Shown one piece after another: positions 12,264-28,179 of a DNA stretch of 63,893 nucleotides. The translations under genes and the position numbers were made by a program. The notes under the pieces are model-generated. The model was not told the DNA's origin. It searched no databases and saw only the letters and a list, made by a program, of their open reading frames with translations. This stretch comes from Polymorphobacter sp. (GTDB taxonomy: Bacteria; Pseudomonadota; Alphaproteobacteria; Sphingomonadales; Sphingomonadaceae), in NCBI GenBank assembly GCA_031422995.1, contig JANPEP010000008.1, positions 1 to 63,893 of the forward strand, read 5' to 3'. Numbering within the stretch: position 1 is the stretch's first letter; the number at the start of each line of letters is the position of its first letter.

Positions 12264-12683
12264 TCAGTTCGCATAGGCCTCATTGCCCACAAAGCCCATC
12301 TTGGTGATCCCGGCCTGCTGGGCCGCAGCCATCACCTTGTCGACAACTTCATATTTGGCCAGGCCTTCGGGACGCAGCCGCAGTTCGGGCTGGCTCGGCA
12401 TGTCTGCCGCCTGCTTCATGTACGAGCGCAGCGTCGCCTGATCGACTTCGACCTTGTTCCAATAAATGTTGGACAGAAAATCGATATCGACCTGGTTGAA
12501 CACCGGATCGACATTGGTCGGCTGGTTGGCATTGACCGGCAGATCCAGCTTCACGGCATGGGTCTGCGGCGGAATGGTGATAATGAACATGATCAGCAAC
12601 ACGAGCATGACGTCGATCAACGGCGTCGTGTTCATGTCGGTCATCGGCGCGCCGTCGCTGCTGTCGCTCATCGCCATCGACAT
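12264..12683 (-). CDS. exbD: ExbD/TolR family biopolymer transport protein
   Basis: MNTTPLIDVMLVLLIMFII. Confidence 0.92.
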   Translation of the reverse strand: MSMAMSDSSDGAPMTDMNTTPLIDVMLVLLIMFIITIPPQTHAVKLDLPVNANQPTNVDPVFNQVDIDFLSNIYWNKVEVDQATLRSYMKQAADMPSQPELRLRPEGLAKYEVVDKVMAAAQQAGITKMGFVGNEAYAN

Positions 12684-12732
12684 GGCATTACTCCTTCAAT
12701 TCCTGCAGGGCGGCATCAAGCCGCCCTGGATA

Positions 12733-13206
12733 TTACCGCGTAACTTCGCCGGCGACGGGGTTCGAAATGAACCCGATCTTCAGAAACCCGGCGCGCTGCA
12801 TGGTATAGATAACCCCGCCAACACACCGATATTCCATATCCTTGTCACCGCGGATATGAACCTCGGGCAACTCGATCTTGCCGCCCTTGGCTTCCTGCCG
12901 TGCGATCTCGTCCTTCAACGCCTTGACGCCGCGATCAAGCAGTTCCTGCTTCGTATCGACCCTGGTCTGACCCCAATAGACATCGCAATTGGCATCGACC
13001 GAGATCAACACGTTCTCGGGCTTGGTCGTCGTCGCCAGGTTCGTCACCGTCGGCAACCTGAGCGCCACGGTCTGGATCACGACGGGAACGGTGATGAGAA
13101 AGATGATGAGCAGAACCAACATGACGTCGACCAGCGGCGTCGTGTTGATCTCGGTCATCGGGCTTTCGCTACCGTCCTCTTCCGGCGATCCGATGTTCAT
13201 CGACAT
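12733..13206 (-). CDS. exbD: ExbD/TolR family biopolymer transport protein
   Basis: INTTPLVDVMLVLLIIFLI, IRGD. Confidence 0.92.
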   Translation of the reverse strand: MSMNIGSPEEDGSESPMTEINTTPLVDVMLVLLIIFLITVPVVIQTVALRLPTVTNLATTTKPENVLISVDANCDVYWGQTRVDTKQELLDRGVKALKDEIARQEAKGGKIELPEVHIRGDKDMEYRCVGGVIYTMQRAGFLKIGFISNPVAGEVTR

Positions 13207-13243
13207 GAGTCAGATGCCCTTTTCTTGGCTGCGTGCCGAACGT

Positions 13244-13969
13244 TCAGCGCGCAACCGGCTTCGGAGCAACGGCGGCCGGTGGCATCGAAGGCGTCACAAC
13301 CCGCGAACCCGAAACCAGCGCACCATGAACATCGGCAGAGAAGTTGTTGAGCTTCTCGGACACATCCTTGTTGCGGCGGATGAGCCAGTTATAGCCAAGC
13401 ACGGCCGGAACGGCGACGGCCAGACCAAGCGCGGTCATGATCAAGGCTTCACCCACCGGGCCAGCGACCTTGTCGATCGAAGCCTGACCGGCCAGACCAA
13501 TGTTGATCAGCGCGCGATAGATACCGACAACCGTCCCGAACAGACCGATGAACGGCGACGTCGAACCGACCGAAGCGAGGAACGAAAGGCCGCCCTGAAG
13601 CTTCGAGGCGACACCGTTGGTCGAACGGTTCAACGCCATCGTCACCCACTCATGCTGGTCGATCTTGTCGGTCAACCGGCCTTCGTGATGGTCCGAAGCG
13701 CGCAGGCCGTCATCAACGATCTGCTTGAACGGCGAGTTCTTGTCGAGCTTGGACGCACCCGTCTTCAGATCAGGCGCCGACCAGAATTTCTTCTCCAACG
13801 TCGCCGCTTCCGTCAGCACCTTCCGCTGGTCGATGTACTTGGTGATGATGATGTACCACGACACCAGCGACATGAAGACCAGGATCCCGAACACCGACTG
13901 GGCAATGATGCCGCCCTGCTCAAGCGCGGCCGCCAGGCCATAGGGATTTTCGACTGCGACGGTTTCCAT
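13244..13969 (-). CDS. exbB: MotA/TolQ/ExbB proton channel protein
   Basis: SPFIGLFGTVVGI, GEALIMTALGLAVAVPA; ATG 13969 after GAGGGA. Confidence 0.92.
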   Translation of the reverse strand: METVAVENPYGLAAALEQGGIIAQSVFGILVFMSLVSWYIIITKYIDQRKVLTEAATLEKKFWSAPDLKTGASKLDKNSPFKQIVDDGLRASDHHEGRLTDKIDQHEWVTMALNRSTNGVASKLQGGLSFLASVGSTSPFIGLFGTVVGIYRALINIGLAGQASIDKVAGPVGEALIMTALGLAVAVPAVLGYNWLIRRNKDVSEKLNNFSADVHGALVSGSRVVTPSMPPAAVAPKPVAR

Positions 13970-14050
13970 TGTAAAATTCCCTCGATTTTTCGTTATGTTC
14001 AATTGGTTGACTGGTCCACAGCGAGGCGCGCTGGCCCCGCCGCAGCCGGA

Positions 14051-14698
14051 TTAGCGAGCGTCCTTCAACTGCCAGCGGACTGGCTGTGACTTGGTTTCCT
14101 GCACGGGCACCCCATCACGCGTCGCCGGGTTGAAGCGGAAACGGCGCATGATGATCTTGCACGTCGCATCGTCCAGCCGCGGCGAACCGCTCGATGACGT
14201 CACGTTGCAGCTTGAAACCTTGCCATCCACATCAATGACAAAGCTGACACGAGCGACGCCCTGCTCCTCGGCGCGCCGCGACGCGTCGGGATAATCGTCT
14301 TCGCTGATGCTGTTGCCTCGGCCCCTGGGCGTGGCCGCAGTCGGCGCCTTCACGGCGGCCGGTGGCGCCGGCGGCGCCGGTGGTGTGAACACCGGAGGTG
14401 CCGTGACCGGAACCTGCTGCTGCACCGTGATCGTCGGCGCGGCTTCGGACTGCACCGAAACCTCCGGCGGCGGCACGAACGGCGGAATCTCGATGTCCTT
14501 GGGCGGCGGCGGCGGCGGTTCTTCCGGCGGCGGCACGTCTTCCTTGACGTTGACTGTTTCCAGCGGCGCAACGATCGCCTTGACGGCTTTCAATGCGAGG
14601 CCGGTGATGAAAGCGTAACCGAGCAGGATATGCAGCAAGGCAACAAGGCCCAGCGCAATCATGCGGTTTTTGCTCATCCCCTGATCAGCGTATGCCAT
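14051..14698 (-). CDS. tonB: Energy transducer TonB
   Basis: N-terminal TM with His, Pro-rich linker, YP..RRAEEQG, SSG...LD C-terminal domain. Confidence 0.92.
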   Translation of the reverse strand: MAYADQGMSKNRMIALGLVALLHILLGYAFITGLALKAVKAIVAPLETVNVKEDVPPPEEPPPPPPKDIEIPPFVPPPEVSVQSEAAPTITVQQQVPVTAPPVFTPPAPPAPPAAVKAPTAATPRGRGNSISEDDYPDASRRAEEQGVARVSFVIDVDGKVSSCNVTSSSGSPRLDDATCKIIMRRFRFNPATRDGVPVQETKSQPVRWQLKDAR

Positions 14699-17154: not shown

Positions 17155-19074
17155 ATGTCCCTGCCGCCAACCGATCGCTTCTCCGAAGAAACCGCCACCT
17201 ACACGGTGCAGGGCAAGGACACGCCCGATCTCGATCGCGGTGTCGCCGCCATCCGCAACGTCCTGCGCACCCTCCCCGCCCGCCCCGGCGTCTATCGCAT
17301 GACCGATTCGGAAGGCGCCGTGCTCTACATCGGCAAGGCCAAGGCGCTCAAAAGCCGCGTCACAAATTATACCCAGGTCGCCCGCCTCTCGCGGCGCCTG
17401 CAACGCATGGTCTCGCAAACCCGCGACATGACCATCGTCACCACCAACTCCGAATCCGAAGCGCTGCTGCTCGAAGCCCAACTCATCAAGCGCTACAGGC
17501 CCCCCTACAATGTCCTGCTCCGCGACGACAAAAGCTTCCCCTTCATATTCCTGCGGGAAGACCATGATTTCCCCCGCATTTCCAAGCACCGCGGCGCCCG
17601 CATCGGCAAGGGCAGCTACTACGGCCCCTTCGCCAGCGCCGGCGCCGTCAACACCACGCTCAACGCCCTGCAAAAGGTCTTCCTGCTGCGCTCCTGCACC
17701 GACAGTTTCTTCGCCAATCGCACCCGGCCCTGCCTCCTCCACCAGATCAAGCGCTGCTCCGCCCCCTGCACCGGCCGCATCGACGATGCCGCTTATGCTG
17801 AGCTTGTCGCCGACGCCAAATCCTTCCTCTCCGGCAAGACCCAGGAGGCGCAAAAGAAGCTTGGGCTGGCCATGCAAACCGCCGCCGAAGCCCGTGACTA
17901 TGAACTCGCCGCCGTGCTGCGTGATCGCCTCCGCGCCCTCACCTTCATCCAGAACACCCAGACGGTGAATGCCGAAGGATCCGCCAGCGATGCTGACATC
18001 GTCGCCCTCGCCGCCAAGTCCGGCGTCATGTGCCTCCAGGTGTTCTTCATCCGTGGCGGGCAAAACTGGGGCCATCGCGCCTTCTTCCCCGCCCACACCG
18101 AAGGTGTGTCCGAAGACGAAGTGCTGATGTCCTTCCTCGCCCAGCTCTACGAGGAATTGCCCCCGCCCCGCGAACTCCTCCTCGACCGCGCATTGAAGGA
18201 AGCCCCCCTCCTCGCCGACGCCCTGTCCGAAAAAGCCGGGCACCGGGTCGGCGTCCGCGCCCCGCAACGCGGCCCCAACCGCAAACTCATCGAACAGGCC
18301 GCGCGCAACGCCGTCGAAGCGCTCGATCGCCGCCAGGCCGAATCAACCACGCAGCACAAATTGCTGCGCGAACTTGCCGACCTTTTCGACCTCGGCGAGC
18401 CACCCGCCCGCATCGAAGTCTATGACAACAGCCACATCATGGGCACGAATGCACTAGGTGCCATGATCGTCGCCGGCCCCGAGGGCTTTCAGAAAAACCA
18501 GTATCGCAAGTTCAACATGAACGACGCCAGCATCACCCCCGGCGACGACTTCGCCATGATGAAGGCCATGCTGTCGCGCCGCTTCGCCCGCCTTGAAAAG
18601 GAAGACCCCGACCGGGAACGCGGCGATTGGCCCGATCTCGTCCTCATCGACGGCGGCAAGGGGCAGTTGTCCGCCGTCAACGAAGCCCTTGCCGAACTCG
18701 GCGTCGAGAACGTCTGCATCATCGGCGTCTCGAAAGGCTTTGACCGCGACGCCGGCCGCGAAACCTTCCACCTGCCCTCGGGCCGCGAACTCCACCTGCC
18801 CCCCAACGCCCCGGTGCTGTTCTTCCTGCAACGCCTGCGCGACGAAGCCCATCGCTTCGCCATCGGCGCCCACCGCGCAAAACGCAGCAAATCCATCGCC
18901 GCCAACCCCCTCGACGACGTCCCCGGCATCGGCCCGGCGCGCAAAAAGGCGCTGCTCATGCACTTCGGCACATCACGCGCGGTCAGGGGCGCCACCCTCG
19001 AAGACCTCGAACGCGCCCCCGGCATCAGCAAGGCCATGGCCGAAGCCATCCACGCCCATTTCCACCAGGGCTGA
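17155..19074 (+). CDS. uvrC: Excinuclease ABC subunit C
   Basis: PGVYRM..LYIGKAK GIY-YIG, IEVYDNSH, DGGKGQ, RDEAHRFA, HhH. Confidence 0.97.
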   Translation: MSLPPTDRFSEETATYTVQGKDTPDLDRGVAAIRNVLRTLPARPGVYRMTDSEGAVLYIGKAKALKSRVTNYTQVARLSRRLQRMVSQTRDMTIVTTNSESEALLLEAQLIKRYRPPYNVLLRDDKSFPFIFLREDHDFPRISKHRGARIGKGSYYGPFASAGAVNTTLNALQKVFLLRSCTDSFFANRTRPCLLHQIKRCSAPCTGRIDDAAYAELVADAKSFLSGKTQEAQKKLGLAMQTAAEARDYELAAVLRDRLRALTFIQNTQTVNAEGSASDADIVALAAKSGVMCLQVFFIRGGQNWGHRAFFPAHTEGVSEDEVLMSFLAQLYEELPPPRELLLDRALKEAPLLADALSEKAGHRVGVRAPQRGPNRKLIEQAARNAVEALDRRQAESTTQHKLLRELADLFDLGEPPARIEVYDNSHIMGTNALGAMIVAGPEGFQKNQYRKFNMNDASITPGDDFAMMKAMLSRRFARLEKEDPDRERGDWPDLVLIDGGKGQLSAVNEALAELGVENVCIIGVSKGFDRDAGRETFHLPSGRELHLPPNAPVLFFLQRLRDEAHRFAIGAHRAKRSKSIAANPLDDVPGIGPARKKALLMHFGTSRAVRGATLEDLERAPGISKAMAEAIHAHFHQG

Positions 19075-19078
19075 CCTG

Positions 19079-19115
19079 CCCCCCTCCCGCCGACAGGAGG
19101 GACCGGGGGTGGGGG
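19079..19115. repeat. Family A element
   Basis: ccctcc...ggagggaccgggggtggggg. Confidence 0.6.
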
Positions 19116-19145
19116 ATACACGCACTTTCCGCTATAAGCGCCCCC

Positions 19146-19520
19146 ATGACCCCCGATCCCGCCGTTATCGCCGCCCTCGCTGTCCTCCGCGACATCATCC
19201 GCGAAACCGGCAAGACCGCCGCCCCGGCTGGCCTCATCGAAACCACCAAATGGGGCCAACCCGCCTTCCTGTCCGCCACCCCGCGCACCGGCACCACCGT
19301 CCGCATCGACGCCCTTCCCGCCGAACCCGGCAAGGTCGCCATTTTCTTCCACTGCAAGACCAGCCTCGTGGAGCGCTTCCGCAGCCTCTTCCCGAATGAT
19401 TTCGAATTCCGCGGCAACCGCGCCCTCGTCCTCGACGCACACCAGCCGCTGCCCCATGAACCGATCGCCACCTGCGTCGCCCTCGCCCTCACCTATTACA
19501 AACCGGCGGCCAGGGCCTGA
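19146..19520 (+). CDS. DUF1801 (YdhG-like) domain protein
   Basis: ETTKWGQPAF, GTTVRID, FHCKTSLVERFR, FRGNRAL. Confidence 0.8.
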   Translation: MTPDPAVIAALAVLRDIIRETGKTAAPAGLIETTKWGQPAFLSATPRTGTTVRIDALPAEPGKVAIFFHCKTSLVERFRSLFPNDFEFRGNRALVLDAHQPLPHEPIATCVALALTYYKPAARA

Positions 19521-19552
19521 AGCCCAAGCCGCCGGATCGTCGGCAATCGCGC

Positions 19553-21607
19553 CTAATGCACGCAGAACGCGATATGGTCGCTGAACGTCCCGCCAATCTG
19601 CCCATAACCATGGGTCAGGTTCAACGTCGCCTCCAGCCACAATATATAAGCGCACGGGAGCAGCCCGGTGATGTTGAACGCCAGCCCGCCCGCCGCGGAA
19701 AGCGCCTGGCCATCGACAATCGCCGGATTGACCGTCGCCGGCACCGGCGCCGGCCCTTCAATATAGACGCTGCACGTCGCCAGATACGGATGATAGGCCG
19801 TGAACAGCGCGTGCAGTGACGGGGTATTGCCCGGCGTCAACGGCTCACAGCCATGCCCGATCAACTCCTCGATATCGAGCAGCAGCGCCAGCGGATAATC
19901 ATTGGCAATGCTGATCGTCGTCCCCGCCCAATCCGGATGCCGGTCAAAGGCATAGACGGTGTTGCTGAGGGCAATCCGCGGCAGCGTGTTGCCACTGATC
20001 GCCACCGCGCCAATAACCTTTCGTGCTTCGAAATTGATCGCGAACTGCGGCTTTTCCGAACGCTTGCTGTCGGCCGCCGGCGGCCCCGCCGGCACCGGCA
20101 TCCCGGCCAGGATCGGCAACCCCGCCCCCGGCCCATGCAGGTCGAACGGCTCCAGCGTCAGCTTGCGTGTATTCAACGCCGCCAGCATATGCGTCGGCGC
20201 AAACTTGCCGCCGCCATGTTGCGTCAGGTTGTTGTCGCTGGGCACCCGCACCCAGCCAGCGGCGGTGATCGGCGTCGACACCTGGATGTGCAGCGGCGGC
20301 CCGATATCCTGCTGGATGTCATAGAATTGCGGCGCGTTGTTGATGGAATAATCGGTGGTGCGCAGCTTCCATTGTCCCGGTGCCGGCAACGCCGTCGCAT
20401 CCCATTCCCAGAATTCCAGCGATCCGATGACCGTCCCGCCAATCTCCGCCTCGGTCAACGGCTGCGCCGCCCCACCCGGCAATTTCTGCGTGGTGAAGCG
20501 ATATTCGATCGGGTCGCCCGCCGGGCTGTCGGGCAACAACCCCAGCAACGGAATGCCGCCGGTAAAGGCGAATCCCCCCGCCGTCGTCGTCCCCACGCCG
20601 GTGAAATCGTTGAAGAACGGATCAACCCGATAATTGCCGACATGGTCAAAGATCGGAATGATTCCCGGCGGTGGGCACACACAGATGCACAACCGGTGGC
20701 AGACCATATAGCAGACCCAGTGGCACAGCTGATGGACATAGCGCTCGGCCTTGTGCTTCTTCACCCATTCGACAAAGCCCCGCTCGTCGTGCCTCGCCAC
20801 CACCGCGACCAACCGGGCGATTCCTTCCTTGTCGCGCACCAGCCGGCCGCTGAATTCGGCAAAACCCCGCATCTCGTCGATCGAAAAATCGTCGGTCATC
20901 GCAAAACTGTGAGTCAAGCGCAGGCACACCACCAGGCAGCGCCAGCTGCACAGCCAATAACAGATCAGCCGGCAATCGCGGTGCGGGCCGAAAATGTCTT
21001 TCAACACCGCACAATTCAGCGATGACGCACCATCGATGATCCGCTTCAAATCACCGGGCTTGCTCGCCACACTGGCCACCGCCACGGCAGAATCGCGCAG
21101 CCGCAGCACCAGCTCGCCGGGGTCCCACCGCAACCCGTCACACACCACCCGGCACACCAGATGACAGCGAACATAACACACCCAATGGCACAGCAGATGC
21201 GCGAACGCCTGCGCCTTCAGCTCGGCAACCACGGCATGAAACGCCCGCGGATCCTCGGCCTCGACCGCCTTGACCAGAACTTCGATCAACTTGGGCTGTT
21301 CGGCCAATTGCCGCAGCACACGGGTGAACGGCCCGATCTGCTCAACCGTCACCGGCTCGCGCGGCGGCCCCGCCAACAGGATGCACAACCGCACACATTC
21401 CTTGCTGCACACCCACTCACAGATCCGGTGGCACGATCCCAGCAATTGCGCCTTGTCGAGCACCTTGGCCCACAACTCGGAATCCCTGGCGCGAAACGCC
21501 TTTATCGCCGCCCCGAACAAGTCGGCATCCTTGGCCAACTGCATGATCGCCGCGCCGCCGCCACCGATGTCCTCGGCAACGTCGGACAATTCAATCGCAT
21601 CACTCAT
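19553..21607 (-). CDS. Uncharacterised 684-aa protein: four Cys-x3 repeat units plus beta-rich C-terminal region
   Basis: Long ORF with GGGGAG SD; repeats CHRICEWVCSKECVRLC, CHWVCYVRCHLVCRVVC, CRLICYWLCSWRCLVVC, CHWVCYMVCHRLCICVC. Confidence 0.85.
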   Translation of the reverse strand: MSDAIELSDVAEDIGGGGAAIMQLAKDADLFGAAIKAFRARDSELWAKVLDKAQLLGSCHRICEWVCSKECVRLCILLAGPPREPVTVEQIGPFTRVLRQLAEQPKLIEVLVKAVEAEDPRAFHAVVAELKAQAFAHLLCHWVCYVRCHLVCRVVCDGLRWDPGELVLRLRDSAVAVASVASKPGDLKRIIDGASSLNCAVLKDIFGPHRDCRLICYWLCSWRCLVVCLRLTHSFAMTDDFSIDEMRGFAEFSGRLVRDKEGIARLVAVVARHDERGFVEWVKKHKAERYVHQLCHWVCYMVCHRLCICVCPPPGIIPIFDHVGNYRVDPFFNDFTGVGTTTAGGFAFTGGIPLLGLLPDSPAGDPIEYRFTTQKLPGGAAQPLTEAEIGGTVIGSLEFWEWDATALPAPGQWKLRTTDYSINNAPQFYDIQQDIGPPLHIQVSTPITAAGWVRVPSDNNLTQHGGGKFAPTHMLAALNTRKLTLEPFDLHGPGAGLPILAGMPVPAGPPAADSKRSEKPQFAINFEARKVIGAVAISGNTLPRIALSNTVYAFDRHPDWAGTTISIANDYPLALLLDIEELIGHGCEPLTPGNTPSLHALFTAYHPYLATCSVYIEGPAPVPATVNPAIVDGQALSAAGGLAFNITGLLPCAYILWLEATLNLTHGYGQIGGTFSDHIAFCVH

Positions 21608-21895
21608 GTCACTCTCCCCAGGAACAGCAAAACAAGGCGCTCAGGCGATGATGCCTGAATGCGTTTCGATGCAACCCACGGAATTTTTATTGATCGTACA
21701 TAATTATTAATTATTGTTTACGTACGACTCTTGACAAAAAACCTACCACAAATCCTCAACGCGATATATGATTTCTTTGTTATACTACCAATGATATGCG
21801 TTTTATGGCTGCATTCACCGGCGCATGGTGCCACGTGACGCCTGCGCAATCTCTGCTATCCTGCGGGCCTCGCCAACCGCGTCGGACGCCCCCTC

Positions 21896-22588
21896 ATGAC
21901 CATCATCCTCTACACCGCCGCTACCCCCAATGGTTACAAGGTCTCGGTGGCGCTGGAGGAAATGGCGCTGCCCTATGATGTGGTGAAGATCGACCTGACC
22001 AAGGGCGAACAGAAATCCCCCGAATTCCTGGCCATCTGCCCCAATGGCCGAGTCCCGGCGCTTGTCGATGATGGATTTCCCATCTTTGAATCCGGCGCCA
22101 TCCTCATCCACCTTGCCGAAAAAACCGGGCTTTTCATGCCGTCGGACCCCCACGGCCGCAGCCGCGTCATCCAATGGCTGATGTTTCAAATGGGCGGCAT
22201 CGGCCCGATGATGGGCCAGGCCAATGTCTTCTACCGCTATTTCCCCGAAAAAATCCCCGCCGCCATCGCGCGATACCAGGGCGAGGGCCGCCGCCTGTTC
22301 ACCGTCCTCGACACCCAACTCGCCAGACACGAATATCTCGCCGGTGATTACAGCATCGCCGATATCGCCAATTGGTGCTGGGTCCGCACCGCCAAATGGT
22401 CGGGCATCGACACCGAAGGCCTGCCCCATCTCCACCGCTGGCTCGCCGCCATCGCCGAACGTCCGGCCGTCCAGCGCGGCATCACCGTCCCCGAAGCCGC
22501 CAAGATCAAGAGCGAAGACGAGGAAGAAATCCGCAAATTCACCGACCGCGCCCGCGGCCTCCTCGAAATGGGCAAACGCGAAGCTTAA
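21896..22588 (+). CDS. Glutathione S-transferase (YfcG/YghU-like)
   Basis: [30 protein letters not shown]. Confidence 0.92.
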
Positions 22589-27147: not shown

Positions 27148-27756
27148 ATGGACAATATTGAACCACAGGCACCAATAAATGACGGCGTCATCGGCGCCAT
27201 GAGCGATGTCCTCGCCCGCAACTGGGGCTGGGTGATGCTGCGCGGCGTCCTCGGCATCATTATCGGCGTGCTGGCATTGTCGATGCCGATGGCCGCCATC
27301 GGCGCGCTGGTGCTGTTGTTCGCGCTCTATTCGATCGCCGATGGCATCGTCGCCATCATTTCCGCCGTTCGCGCCGCCAGCAAGGATCAACGCTGGGGCT
27401 GGTACCTCGTCTCGGGGCTGGTCAGCCTCGGTGCCGCCGCCGTCGCACTGTTCATGCCCATCGTCGCGGTCAAGGTCTTCCTCTACATCATGGCGTTCTG
27501 GGCAATCCTTGGCGGCACCGCGCTGCTCATCGCCGCCTTCAAACTCGATATCGAACATGGCCGCTGGGTGCTCATCCTCGGCGGTGCGCTCTCGGTGCTG
27601 TGGGGCGTCTTGCTGCTGTTCCAGCCGGCGGTCGGGGCGCTGGTGCTGGCGCTGTGGTTCGGCGTCTACACCCTCACCTTCGGCATCATCCTGGTCGTCC
27701 TCGCCTTCAAGCTGCGCAGCGGCGCCGAAAAGCTCAAGGCGCGGCTGACGGCCTGA
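27148..27756 (+). CDS. HdeD/DUF308 family membrane protein
   Basis: NWGWVMLRG, multiple hydrophobic segments. Confidence 0.85.
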   Translation: MDNIEPQAPINDGVIGAMSDVLARNWGWVMLRGVLGIIIGVLALSMPMAAIGALVLLFALYSIADGIVAIISAVRAASKDQRWGWYLVSGLVSLGAAAVALFMPIVAVKVFLYIMAFWAILGGTALLIAAFKLDIEHGRWVLILGGALSVLWGVLLLFQPAVGALVLALWFGVYTLTFGIILVVLAFKLRSGAEKLKARLTA

Positions 27757-27796
27757 CTGGCTTCGGACCGCGTCGCCTGCTATGCGGGCGCCGCGG

Positions 27797-28179
27797 TCAG
27801 AGGATCGGGCGATCGCCGCTGCGTCAGCAGGGGAGGAAAGTCCGGGCTCCACGGAACGCGGTGCCGGGTAACACCCGGCGAGGGTGACCTCAGGGAAAGT
27901 GCCACAGAGAGCAGACCGCCGATGGGCTCCTTTCGGGGAGAGACAGGCAAGGGTGAAAGGGTGCGGTAAAAGCGCACCGCGCGATGGGCAACCAAAGCGG
28001 CATGGCAAACCCCACCGGGAGCAAGACCGAATAGGGACGGCACGGACCTTCGGGTCCAGGGCAGGAACCGGCCCCGCCGTCCGGGTTGGTTGCTTGAGGC
28101 GCCGGGCAACCGGCGTCCTAGAGGAATGATCGTCCAGAAGTTTCGGCTTCAGACAGAACCCGGCTTACAGATCCTCTGA
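27797..28179 (+). ncRNA. rnpB: RNase P RNA, class A
   Basis: GAGGAAAGTCCGGGCT, GAAAGTGCCACAGA, AGACAGAACCCGGCTTA; terminal tcagaggatc/gatcctctga helix. Confidence 0.97.

Follow-up and report, generated by a model that had tools for sequence, protein, structure and literature searches.

The cysteines of P0001, a 684-residue protein of no described family, fall into four regular stripes that pair two by two; the pairing, its antiparallel register and the two-stripe unit are established by sequence analysis of the family, and the helices that carry the stripes are predicted. In our best explanation, to which we give an even chance, two ladders of five disulfides, together with a C199-C309 bond, would staple a new helical domain that carries Ig-like domains, and the protein would have its job after a release without a signal. 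Within this reading it is likely that the rungs are S-S bonds, and a job outside the cytosol, in adhesion, a matrix or a protein coat, is plausible, if slightly short of an even bet.

Cysteine stripes and their pairing

The open reading frame of P0001 (minus strand) is real, encodes 26 cysteines and lies in the window, that is, the whole stretch of 63,893 nucleotides that was analysed. Its GC3 of 0.79 is similar to that of neighbouring genes. A sigma70-like site at 21737-21710 scores 10/12, and 0.7 such sites are expected by chance. A contig of run X1, possibly the source sample, covers 18500-22204 with 7 substitutions and 0 gaps. The features of the locus are as follows, with their basis in brackets.

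19146..19520, plus strand: DUF1801 gene that shares with the P0001 gene an insertion flanked by uvrC and the GST gene; the partnership is not conserved
19553..21607, minus strand: gene for P0001, 26 Cys, no signal peptide (open reading frame and homologues)
19556..19900, minus strand: predicted second Ig-like beta-sandwich, residues 570-684 (fold search with 96 residues aligned, Z up to 8.8, rmsd 3.1)
19901..20662, minus strand: predicted first Ig-like beta-sandwich, approximate limits 316-569, into which variable aromatic hairpins are inserted (fold search)
20663..20674, minus strand: PPPG linker, near the point of N-/C-module exchange among relatives (homologue comparison)
20669..21124, minus strand: ladder module 2, residues 162-313, duplicate of module 1 (hhalign)
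20675..20725, minus strand: stripe 4, C295, C299, C303, C307, C311, plus C309 (covariation)
20924..20974, minus strand: stripe 3, C212, C216, C220, C224, C228 (covariation)
21011..21013, minus strand: C199, off-stripe partner of C309 in an eleventh pair (covariation)
21134..21607, minus strand: ladder module 1, residues 1-158, eight predicted helices (fold prediction)
21140..21190, minus strand: stripe 2, C140, C144, C148, C152, C156 (covariation, tree, couplings)
21383..21433, minus strand: stripe 1, C59, C63, C67, C71, C75 (covariation, tree, couplings)
21614..21619, minus strand: Shine-Dalgarno-like GGGGAG, 6 nt before the ATG (sequence)
21710..21737, minus strand: sigma70-like promoter match TTGTCA-16-AATAAT (consensus match only)

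All four C-x3-C-x3-C-x3-C-x3-C stripes (residues 59-75, 140-156, 212-228 and 295-311) are exact, just as an earlier note on this DNA had described them. When the first 314 residues were shuffled, one five-Cys stripe arose in 9/20,000 shuffles and two in none, and only 2 of the genome's 32,516 six-frame ORFs contain one, the second being a CG-repeat. Five cysteines per stripe is true of P0001 itself, but most relatives have six per stripe position set. The suggestion that units 1/3 and 2/4 share register as a doubled pair was borne out by hhalign, in which modules 1 and 2 align with a probability of 100% (E 3e-49).

Counted over 151 non-redundant relatives as both / only first / only second / neither, the pairs read 146/0/0/5 for 59-156, 66/0/2/83 for 67-148, 125/0/9/17 for 71-144, 98/6/0/47 for 79-136, 142/2/1/6 for 224-299, 122/2/3/24 for 232-291 and 117/0/1/33 for 199-309. 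The register of the covarying pairs is antiparallel, running from 59-156 to 79-136 and from 212-311 to 232-291, plus 199-309. On a tree of 118 sequences, built with the Cys columns left out, 58/60 changes were shared for the 7 testable register pairs, compared with 133/816 for 164 other pairs. The three strongest mean-field couplings are rungs, and the Cys count is even in 131/151 relatives, where 76 would be expected. Since cysteines are gained and lost in pairs and in register, the partners should be stripes 1 and 2 in one ladder and 3 and 4 in the other, which favours the disulfide zipper that the earlier note had offered as one of its options.

From covariation and register, the rungs between stripes 1 and 2 were assigned as 59-156, 63-152, 67-148, 71-144 and 75-140; those between stripes 3 and 4 are 212-311, 216-307, 220-303, 224-299 and 228-295. 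The position sums (215 in ladder 1, 523 in ladder 2) correspond to nested antiparallel pairing of CX3C helices, and the paired stripes are separated by 64 residues (1-2) and 66 residues (3-4), i.e. about 65 residues forming three predicted helices. In ladder 2 just two pairs are variable enough for a good test, 224-299 and 232-291 (the sixth rung of the family), and the other rungs of this ladder were assigned because of their register and symmetry with ladder 1. Rungs 75-140, 212-311, 216-307 and 220-303 barely vary, with rare losses that are mostly single, and we infer their pairing because they are near-invariant. The C199-C309 pair was absent from the earlier account of the protein.

Predicted domains, relatives and module exchange

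The N-module is confidently predicted (pLDDT 96, pTM 0.93) to form one compact domain of all four units, in which helix begins at residue 7 (pLDDT over 90). No solved fold among 48,161 chains matched it (best Z 4.5), no Csp chain was among the fold-search matches listed, and Foldseek against PDB and BFVD gave no match at E 0.001 or better. A PDB sequence search with P0001 returned only de novo helical designs (E 0.02 or worse), and the ESM Atlas only unnamed clusters under 0.9 and Ig leads, with nothing for the N-module. The C-terminal ~370 residues, formerly considered unassignable, are predicted to be two Ig-like beta-sandwiches: two-domain fold matches cover residues 316-684 (Z 8.3-8.8), and residues 574-684 match a beta-sandwich over 96 aligned residues (Z 8.8, rmsd 3.1), in support of the fused beta domain that had been proposed. 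In the second sandwich C587 and C652 are near-invariant and C682 is mostly unpaired. Tandem Ig/FnIII-like adhesin or scaffold domains (6xi3, RbmA 4be5, MG domains of alpha2-macroglobulin) likewise have two beta-sandwiches (Z 8.3-8.8). However, this is a generic fold likeness with 6-12% identity and tied matches, and such adhesins and scaffolds are secreted with signals, whereas P0001 has none.

Far from being an orphan, P0001 has relatives at 79 genome loci in 14 phyla and in many metagenomes, the hosts being scattered soil and sediment microbes, both bacteria and archaea. Cultured isolates of Sinomonas, Humibacillus and Solirubrobacter are among them. Pfam, NCBIfam and PHROGs have no family for it; the only NCBIfam row was HuaA (E 0.97). 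A repeat homologue search gave the same 30 proteins, and no description of the family was found in the mostly non-subscription literature searched. The gene was found in 0/83 candidate viral contigs and in none of the plasmids searched. Comparison of relatives shows, at the level of alignments, that N- and C-modules have been exchanged between families: P0019 and P0013 are 33% identical in N and 84% in C, L015 and L073 are 75% identical in N and 26% in C, and cousins bear transthyretin-like domains where P0001 has the helical module. By the same kind of evidence the family lacks a signal-like segment, as 149 N-termini, judged by start position and hydropathy, showed no hydrophobic leader, and the earlier statement that P0001 has no signal peptide stands.

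Several domain matches were taken as generic helix matches, namely CATASP (20/88 members, best E 1.4e-5, scores below cut-off in the three proteins whose scores were shown), Ddi2_HDD and Nif11 (2/88 members, E 0.019). A CX3CH heme motif was rejected, since its first Cys has a ladder partner, the motif is absent in P0001 and there is no export signal.

Nature of the rungs and site of action

Paired loss extends beyond the stripes. It is seen for the beta-domain pair 351-390 (33/0/0/103) and in 20 cousins with transthyretin-like domains in place of the ladder (147-260, 19/0/0/1; 10-140, 7/0/0/13), and judging from these alignments it is ordinary structural disulfide behaviour. Lost cysteines are replaced by A, R, S, Y, L, T or V, with His and Met together making up 6/482 substitutions. 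Five or six S-S rungs fit badly between rigid ideal helices; in a flexible two-helix model six S-S rungs close with <5 degrees of backbone change. We propose that the protein would fold reduced in the cytosol with its thiols already face to face, leave the cell without using a signal peptide, probably through lysis, and probably be oxidised only afterwards, the ladder zipping up when oxygen or an oxidase is met. In 9 of 159 loci of the family, L112 and L145 among them, the gene adjoins one for a DUF1360-like CxxC membrane protein, a candidate for the oxidation. The Cys pairs of two predicted antiparallel helix pairs would thereby close into disulfide ladders of five to six rungs each, and the stapled helical domain would be a very stable body bearing two predicted Ig-like binding or assembly domains. 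Several points count against this explanation. The bacterial cytosol is reducing, the export route is hypothetical, and the rungs are kept in hosts from mostly anaerobic groups (6+6 in L073 and L019, 4+6 in L023). In addition, 44/118 sequences have R/Y or R/W at the central rung 67/148, a bulky combination for helices ~6 A apart. The DUF1360-like gene is missing in the window genome and in 49/51 hosts searched; PF07098 was an insensitive model for this subfamily.

The retention of rungs in anaerobe-group hosts and the missing signal peptide would both suit a cytosolic thiol-metal ladder, which we nevertheless regard as unlikely. Each rung would be a two-coordinate S-M-S bridge (Cu(I), Ag(I) or Hg(II)); more ions might sit between i/i+4 cysteines along each helix, and ten or more soft metal ions would be stored or buffered. 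MNIO genes, which are linked to copper, are near in 6/159 loci of the family. Six S-Cu-S rungs are readily modelled (CA-CA 7.7-7.9 A) and fit the flexible model at lower strain than S-S rungs (cost 1.17 vs 2.25); two-coordinate metal rungs suit the modelled geometry equally well. H137, H141 and H296, which flank the stripes, are conserved in 139, 117 and 122 of 151 relatives, and in Csp3 Cu(I) is bound both by the CXXXC motif of a single helix and between neighbouring helices (PMC5171941). Against metal rungs stand the pairing that reaches beta-strand cysteines and stripe-less cousins, the rarity of His and Met as substitutes, and the fact that Cys is lost singly in Csp3 (exactly one in 11/94, two in none) as opposed to in pairs in the P0001 family, although this Csp3 control is shallow (66% vs 40% mean identity, one variable position). 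The neighbourhood survey of homologues that had been proposed brought up no metal-gene enrichment: no heavy-metal family with at least two members occurred in either batch of 140 nearest neighbours (280/447 scanned), CopA-like genes are near in 2/159 loci and Csp3 in 0/159. A PF03860 scan of host genomes gave 0/51, with a 21-position model that is insensitive.

It is improbable that P0001 serves as a cytosolic redox buffer or sensor, whose reversible disulfides would take up oxidant (up to 22 electrons) and be reduced again, or would switch the state of the helical domain. A leaderless protein with paired thiols would fit such a role, and the divergent neighbour of the gene, a GST, resembles GSH-dependent disulfide oxidoreductases, with an E of 3.6e-53 that falls below the family cut-off. 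However, the GST is a resident neighbour of uvrC, which it adjoins in 5/5 congeners without the P0001 gene, and it was rejected as a functional partner; glutathione, mycothiol or thioredoxin would presumably be cheaper, and the swappable Ig domains with Cys pairs of their own would be left unexplained.

A toxin or bacteriocin, released by lysis or injected, would carry a locked membrane-active helical module that opens on reduction in the target, with the Ig domains choosing the receptor. A helical N-terminus with a beta C-terminus, variable tips and module exchange would agree with this, as would the eCIS marker Pvc16_N, which is commoner in hosts (21/51) than in two class samples (19/201 and 21/201) and in a matched comparison (5/15 vs 36/397, p 0.011); genome size and kinship confound these comparisons. 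In the window genome, eCIS genes lie on another contig (C221), and eCIS genes are near in 2/159 loci. Yet Pvc16_N is absent from 30/51 hosts and present in 16/60 congeners. The stripe helices contain H, R, E and K residues and do not span membranes, the loci surveyed showed no small immunity-like gene as a conserved neighbour, and cousins swap the helical module for transthyretin-like domains. Moreover, eCIS cargo has an unstructured N-terminal loading leader, which P0001 lacks. Overall, we hold such a role to be quite improbable. In one host (G058) a Pvc16 match lies 9 kb from the family gene, outside any eCIS operon.

The metal core of the earlier note, with all four stripes lining one four-helix core in Cys4 layers or around a Cu(I) chain, appears very improbable, unlike the zipper and the beta domain of the same proposal. 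The four units do form one compact predicted domain, and weak signals do connect its halves (136-232 with phi 0.49-0.57, and some couplings of H8 with H12 and H16), but the strongest cross-half couplings are between the non-Cys helices H5-H9 and cysteines pair two by two, not in fours. Natural one-ladder proteins with one stripe pair and intact starts (L191, from an isolate genome, L079 and P0174) exist, hence a four-helix Cys core is not required. Like P0001, Csp1 and Csp3 (DUF326, PF03860) have many cysteines on one helix face, and Csp3 is leaderless as well; according to PMC5171941, however, Csp is a ~135-aa four-helix bundle without disulfides, and the P0001 family has Ig domains. Spacings of 3 and 4 are mixed in Csp3 (467 and 741) and strictly 4 in the P0001 family (6 and 2286), and a Csp3 alignment (120 hits) matched the two halves by hhalign at probabilities of 4.6% and 1.5%, over 19 non-Cys columns. 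Pairwise covariation, the one-ladder forms, this lack of profile similarity and the rare replacement of Cys by His or Met together disfavour a Csp-like core.

A giant RiPP-type substrate with cysteines modified by MNIO or radical SAM enzymes is scarcely credible: besides the MNIO neighbours, one pair of which (L141) looks operonic, and the faint Nif11 match, TIGR03975 rSAM genes are near in 3/159 loci, but ~150/159 loci including the window have neither neighbour, most such clusters hold their own small precursor-like gene, the cysteines sit in a well-folded predicted domain, and CXXX-repeat/MNIO precursors are short with a conserved adjacent modifying enzyme, the P0001 family being neither.

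Related systems and possible significance

Nested disulfides between i/i+4 cysteines of two antiparallel helices, the layout predicted here, are present in the twin-CX3C small Tim proteins. They also occur in alpha-hairpinins, including six-Cys nigellin-1.1, in which C1X3C2-Xn-C3X3C4 helix pairs are disulfide-linked (PMC11591084). Those are eukaryotic peptides of 2-3 rungs, with 4-6 Cys and a loop of 4-20 residues, whereas P0001 is prokaryotic, 684 aa long and without a secretion signal, with 5-6 rungs and two ladders in a 313-residue domain. The clusterin disulfide domain has five antiparallel disulfides along a helix, as predicted here, but according to PMC12527946 it is eukaryotic and ER-secreted, with irregular spacing and a partner strand broken into short helices. 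The Foldseek match between the N-module and clusterin was not significant (E 0.59).

The spore-envelope proteins CsxA/CsxC and ExsY/CotY are likewise not known to have signal peptides. Being Cys-rich, disulfide-stabilised and self-assembling (bioRxiv 10.64898/2026.09.03.749163), they would offer a model for P0001, although they have SPOCS or other folds and are found only in Bacillota spores, and Bacillota account for 0/79 genome loci of the P0001 family. No Pfam or NCBIfam match to a SPOCS or CotY/ExsY domain was obtained in P0001.

Should the rungs prove to be disulfides, both bacteria and archaea would make proteins with 11-13 disulfides without the Sec/Dsb route, and the site and means of oxidation become the question. 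The 150-residue module, whose fold has no solved relative, would then be a natural, regular stapled helix pair of five to six rungs, of use as a hyperstable scaffold. Metal-binding rungs would instead represent a second soft-metal storage architecture, unrelated to Csp. One may further speculate, as an unlikely but far-reaching reading, that no longer regular cystine ladders between helices are known than these, with six rungs in each of two ladders and a fold that the PDB lacks, and that the family belongs to an unrecognised guild of leaderless, disulfide-built prokaryotic proteins oxidised outside Sec/Dsb. Its members would be ladder-Ig proteins, transthyretin-Ig proteins and a 440-aa Cys-ended partner with a common C-terminal Ig module, and in bacteria and archaea that do not sporulate they would assemble into a cross-linked matrix or coat. 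Oxidation might occur on lysis or through a dedicated CxxC membrane protein of the DUF1360 type.

Gene, family and predicted fold

The open reading frame at 19553-21607 on the minus strand encodes a 684-aa protein (P0001) with 26 Cys, of which 22 lie within helical residues 1-313 (the N-module), and it contains exactly the four C-x3-C-x3-C-x3-C-x3-C stripes quoted in the earlier note. One five-Cys stripe arose in 9 of 20,000 shuffles, and two stripes in none. That the gene is real is supported by its codon bias, by a ribosome site and a match to a sigma70-like promoter, and by an ungapped contig covering 18500-22204, from a sequencing run (X1) that is possibly of the source sample. Since uvrC directly abuts the GST gene in all five congeners tested and the P0001 gene is present in only 2 of 61 genus genomes, it is an acquired insertion; it was not found in the viral contigs or plasmids searched. 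Over 19076-19555, a low-depth X1 contig links uvrC to the P0001 gene without the DUF1801 gene, an order also seen at locus L004. Elsewhere in the window, ORFs at 12264-14698 look by eye like a TonB-ExbB-ExbD-ExbD cluster, and intergenic ~27756-28150 presumably resembles RNase P RNA.

P0001 matched no family in Pfam, NCBIfam or PHROG, and our literature search found no description of its family. It had been called an orphan, a label that did not hold: relatives were found in protein clusters, in 79 genome loci and in metagenomes (80 of 189 kept), the homologue search giving 30 clusters and 586 representatives at E <=0.001 (150 of them listed). The genome loci comprise 43 Actinomycetota, 11 Pseudomonadota, 10 Acidobacteriota, 5 Chloroflexota and ten phyla seen once each, including two archaea. 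The nearest named homologues, at 66-78% identity, all come from Alphaproteobacteria, and three of the four belong to Sphingomonadales; 48 of the 50 host genomes searched (of 79 hosts) have one match each. We rate the family as unnamed and its structural principle as already known, here in a new variant.

The full-length model (pLDDT 91.7, pTM 0.65) has 16 helices followed by beta structure; modelled alone, the N-module reaches pLDDT 95.6 and pTM 0.93. The beta domain anticipated after the PPP linker takes the form, in the model, of two Ig-like sandwiches (the C-module) with generic fold matches (Z up to 8.8). Against 48,161 chains the best Z of the N-module was 4.5, well below the 13-14 often reached by helical models without relatedness, and Foldseek found no match in PDB or BFVD. 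This suggests, but does not prove, that the fold is new; the prediction is of a helical domain to which no solved structure is related.

Cysteine register and modules

From 300 N-module hits, 221 of which span both ladders (stripes 1+2 and 3+4), 151 sequences remained at <85% identity after fragments were dropped. Family stripes lengthen to six positions each, and Cys presence and absence match in antiparallel register, with constant position sums of 215 and 523.

Cys pairs in 151 N-modules (rung, pair between two stripes; both / only first / only second / neither)
Rung 59-156: 146/0/0/5
Rung 63-152: 146/1/2/2
Rung 67-148: 66/0/2/83
Rung 71-144: 125/0/9/17
Rung 75-140: 151/0/0/0
Rung 79-136: 98/6/0/47
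Rung 212-311: 145/4/0/2
Rung 216-307: 148/3/0/0
Rung 220-303: 148/2/0/1
Rung 224-299: 142/2/1/6
Rung 228-295: 147/1/3/0
Rung 232-291: 122/2/3/24
Off-stripe pair 199-309: 117/0/1/33

The near-invariant rungs vary too little for a direct pairing test, and in the few cases where one of their Cys is lost, its partner mostly stays. On a FastTree of 118 sequences built without the Cys columns, register pairs shared 58 of 60 possible changes against 133 of 816 for other pairs, so kinship does not explain the pairing. Rungs account for the three strongest mean-field couplings, 131 of 151 sequences have an even number of Cys (76 expected), and in P0001 all 22 N-module Cys are assigned to 11 pairs.

The N-module halves are duplicates (profile alignment probability 100%, E 3e-49), which bears out the doubled pair proposed earlier. 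The same C-module as in P0001 follows 129 of the 151 N-modules, another long beta region follows 11, and 11 are partial; mosaic relatives show module exchange near the PPP linker. The absence of a signal peptide was also correctly noted: Met stands at the module start in 143 of 149 sequences, the N-termini are acidic (149 sequences), and the 23 longer open frames contain no strongly hydrophobic stretch (maximum 1.87, 10-residue window). On sequence evidence, the cysteines are paired in antiparallel register, the two-stripe module is duplicated, the Ig modules are swappable and there is no leader.

Chemistry of the rungs

The family is leaderless yet looks disulfide-built. We favour the reading that S-S rungs would form after non-Sec release and yield a hyperstable binding or structural protein, and give it an even chance. 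In its favour we count the off-stripe pair; beta-strand Cys, namely the pair 351-390 (33/0/0/103) and the near-invariant C587 and C652; paired Cys in 20 cousins with the same C-module but two transthyretin-like domains, which likewise start straight in the domain; the scarcity of His and Met (together 6 of 482) among replacements of lost Cys; and the lack of a recurring heavy-metal family among 280 of 447 nearest neighbours scanned. In a shallow control of 94 sequences of the copper storage protein Csp3, one Cys was lost in 11 and two in none; Csp3 is reported not to form disulfides, and its Cu(I) is held both by CXXXC motifs and between neighbouring helices (PMC5171941). Precedents are the nested CX3C helix pairs of alpha-hairpinins, with two or three disulfides (PMC11591084), and the five antiparallel disulfides of clusterin (PMC12527946). 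The P0001 ladder would act as a much lengthened alpha-hairpinin staple, although P0001 itself lies outside that family. For self-assembly stabilised by disulfides, Cys-rich spore proteins are a precedent (bioRxiv 10.64898/2026.09.03.749163), but no P0001-family host belongs to Bacillota.

Against disulfides we count the frequent R/Y at 67/148, the rungs retained in hosts of anaerobe groups, the conserved His flanking the stripes, and geometry. A rigid-helix model is strained at five or six S-S rungs; in a flexible one, six rungs can be closed as S-S (CA-CA 5.5-5.9 A) or, at lower cost, as S-Cu-S (7.7-7.9 A), so that modelled geometry does not discriminate. Metal rungs are unlikely. That the paired Cys form a redox buffer is distinctly improbable, and that the protein is a toxin still less probable.

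Slimmer again are the prospects of a Csp-like core. P0001 is not a Csp, and two-stripe proteins with intact starts and beta domains directly after exist (L191, L079, P0174); that of L191, 437 aa, comes from an isolate genome and has a ribosome site. P0126 is also two-stripe, with a long N-terminal extension, and all four have five or six full rungs. Cross-half couplings are strongest between non-Cys helices H5-H9 and weaker at H8-H12 and H8-H16. Given these one-ladder proteins and couplings, a four-stripe core is not required; the common four-helix Cys core proposed earlier becomes unnecessary, while the two ladders could still adjoin.

In the C-module, C587 and C652 are near-invariant. C682 (19562-19564) is conserved, but 146 of 211 C-modules (C587, no C612, C652, C682) offer it no obvious partner; it might join two molecules or serve a metal as third ligand.

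Neighbours and cousins

No conserved operon was found around P0001-family genes.

Neighbours at 159 loci, near-duplicates included
BTAD regulator: 14
DUF1360-like CxxC membrane protein: 9
440-aa Cys-ended protein of unnamed family: 6
MNIO: 6
RiPP rSAM: 3
eCIS genes: 2
CopA-like: 2
Csp3: 0

With MNIO and RiPP rSAM genes at so few loci, a RiPP substrate is scarcely credible. MNIO-partner clusters occur at L052:10225-12249, L081:3517-4644, L015:3756-5572 and L141:3-890, the first two with a ~80-aa CxxC protein outside every NCBIfam precursor family. Directly upstream of the P0001-family gene, L006:2363-3842 and L090:2179-3658 hold an ATP-grasp-like ligase ORF (by eye) and a 145-aa protein that resembles a precursor and carries KEFK/KLEKFE repeats.

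Loci of two recurring neighbours
DUF1360-like protein: L037:7433-7828, L046:5513-5848, L069:7455-7859, L112:4299-4661, L145:5772-6131, L216, L217
440-aa protein: L027:6650-7969, L030, L033, L069:6084-7391, L151, L152, L217:37-1389

The small DUF1360-like protein carries a third Cys besides its invariant CFxC motif. It adjoins P0001-family genes or other Cys-rich unknowns and may serve as a disulfide oxidase or help in export. Its subfamily is rare (2 of 51 hosts, in both next to the P0001-family gene) and gave 8 hits in 201 class genomes; of the two strong ones, one adjoins a Cys/Trp-rich protein, the other the 440-aa protein and BTAD. The available parts of papers naming the subfamily describe no function. 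The window's genome lacks the gene, and L218 carries a distant relative among phage-like genes. The 440-aa protein is leaderless, rich in Cys at its ends and in Ser/Thr in its core, matches nothing in Pfam, NCBIfam or PHROG, and is encoded 31-87 bp upstream of the P0001-family gene in three loci.

The eCIS marker Pvc16_N occurs in 21 of 51 hosts; for comparison, two class samples have it at ~10% and 16 of 60 congeners carry it. This modest, confounded enrichment may mark a lysis-release lifestyle. A 5.2-kb contig of the window's genome (C221) has eCIS-like genes, with a Pvc16_N hit and, by eye, sheath and tube. Peptidases (S53/S8, C1, A4, M4), metallophosphoesterases and phospholipase C recur as neighbours at low frequency (L005, L015, L017, L021, L056, L057 and L093), and by eye several of them show no clear signal peptide.

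Cousin families (P0064, P0067, P0072, P0073 and others; L192:4365-6197; L193:3818-5917) share the C-terminal Ig module and are leaderless, with two transthyretin-like domains (the type with paired Cys) or other beta repeats at the N-terminus. The L192 cousin adjoins an ORF resembling, by eye, a Tat-exported tyrosinase.
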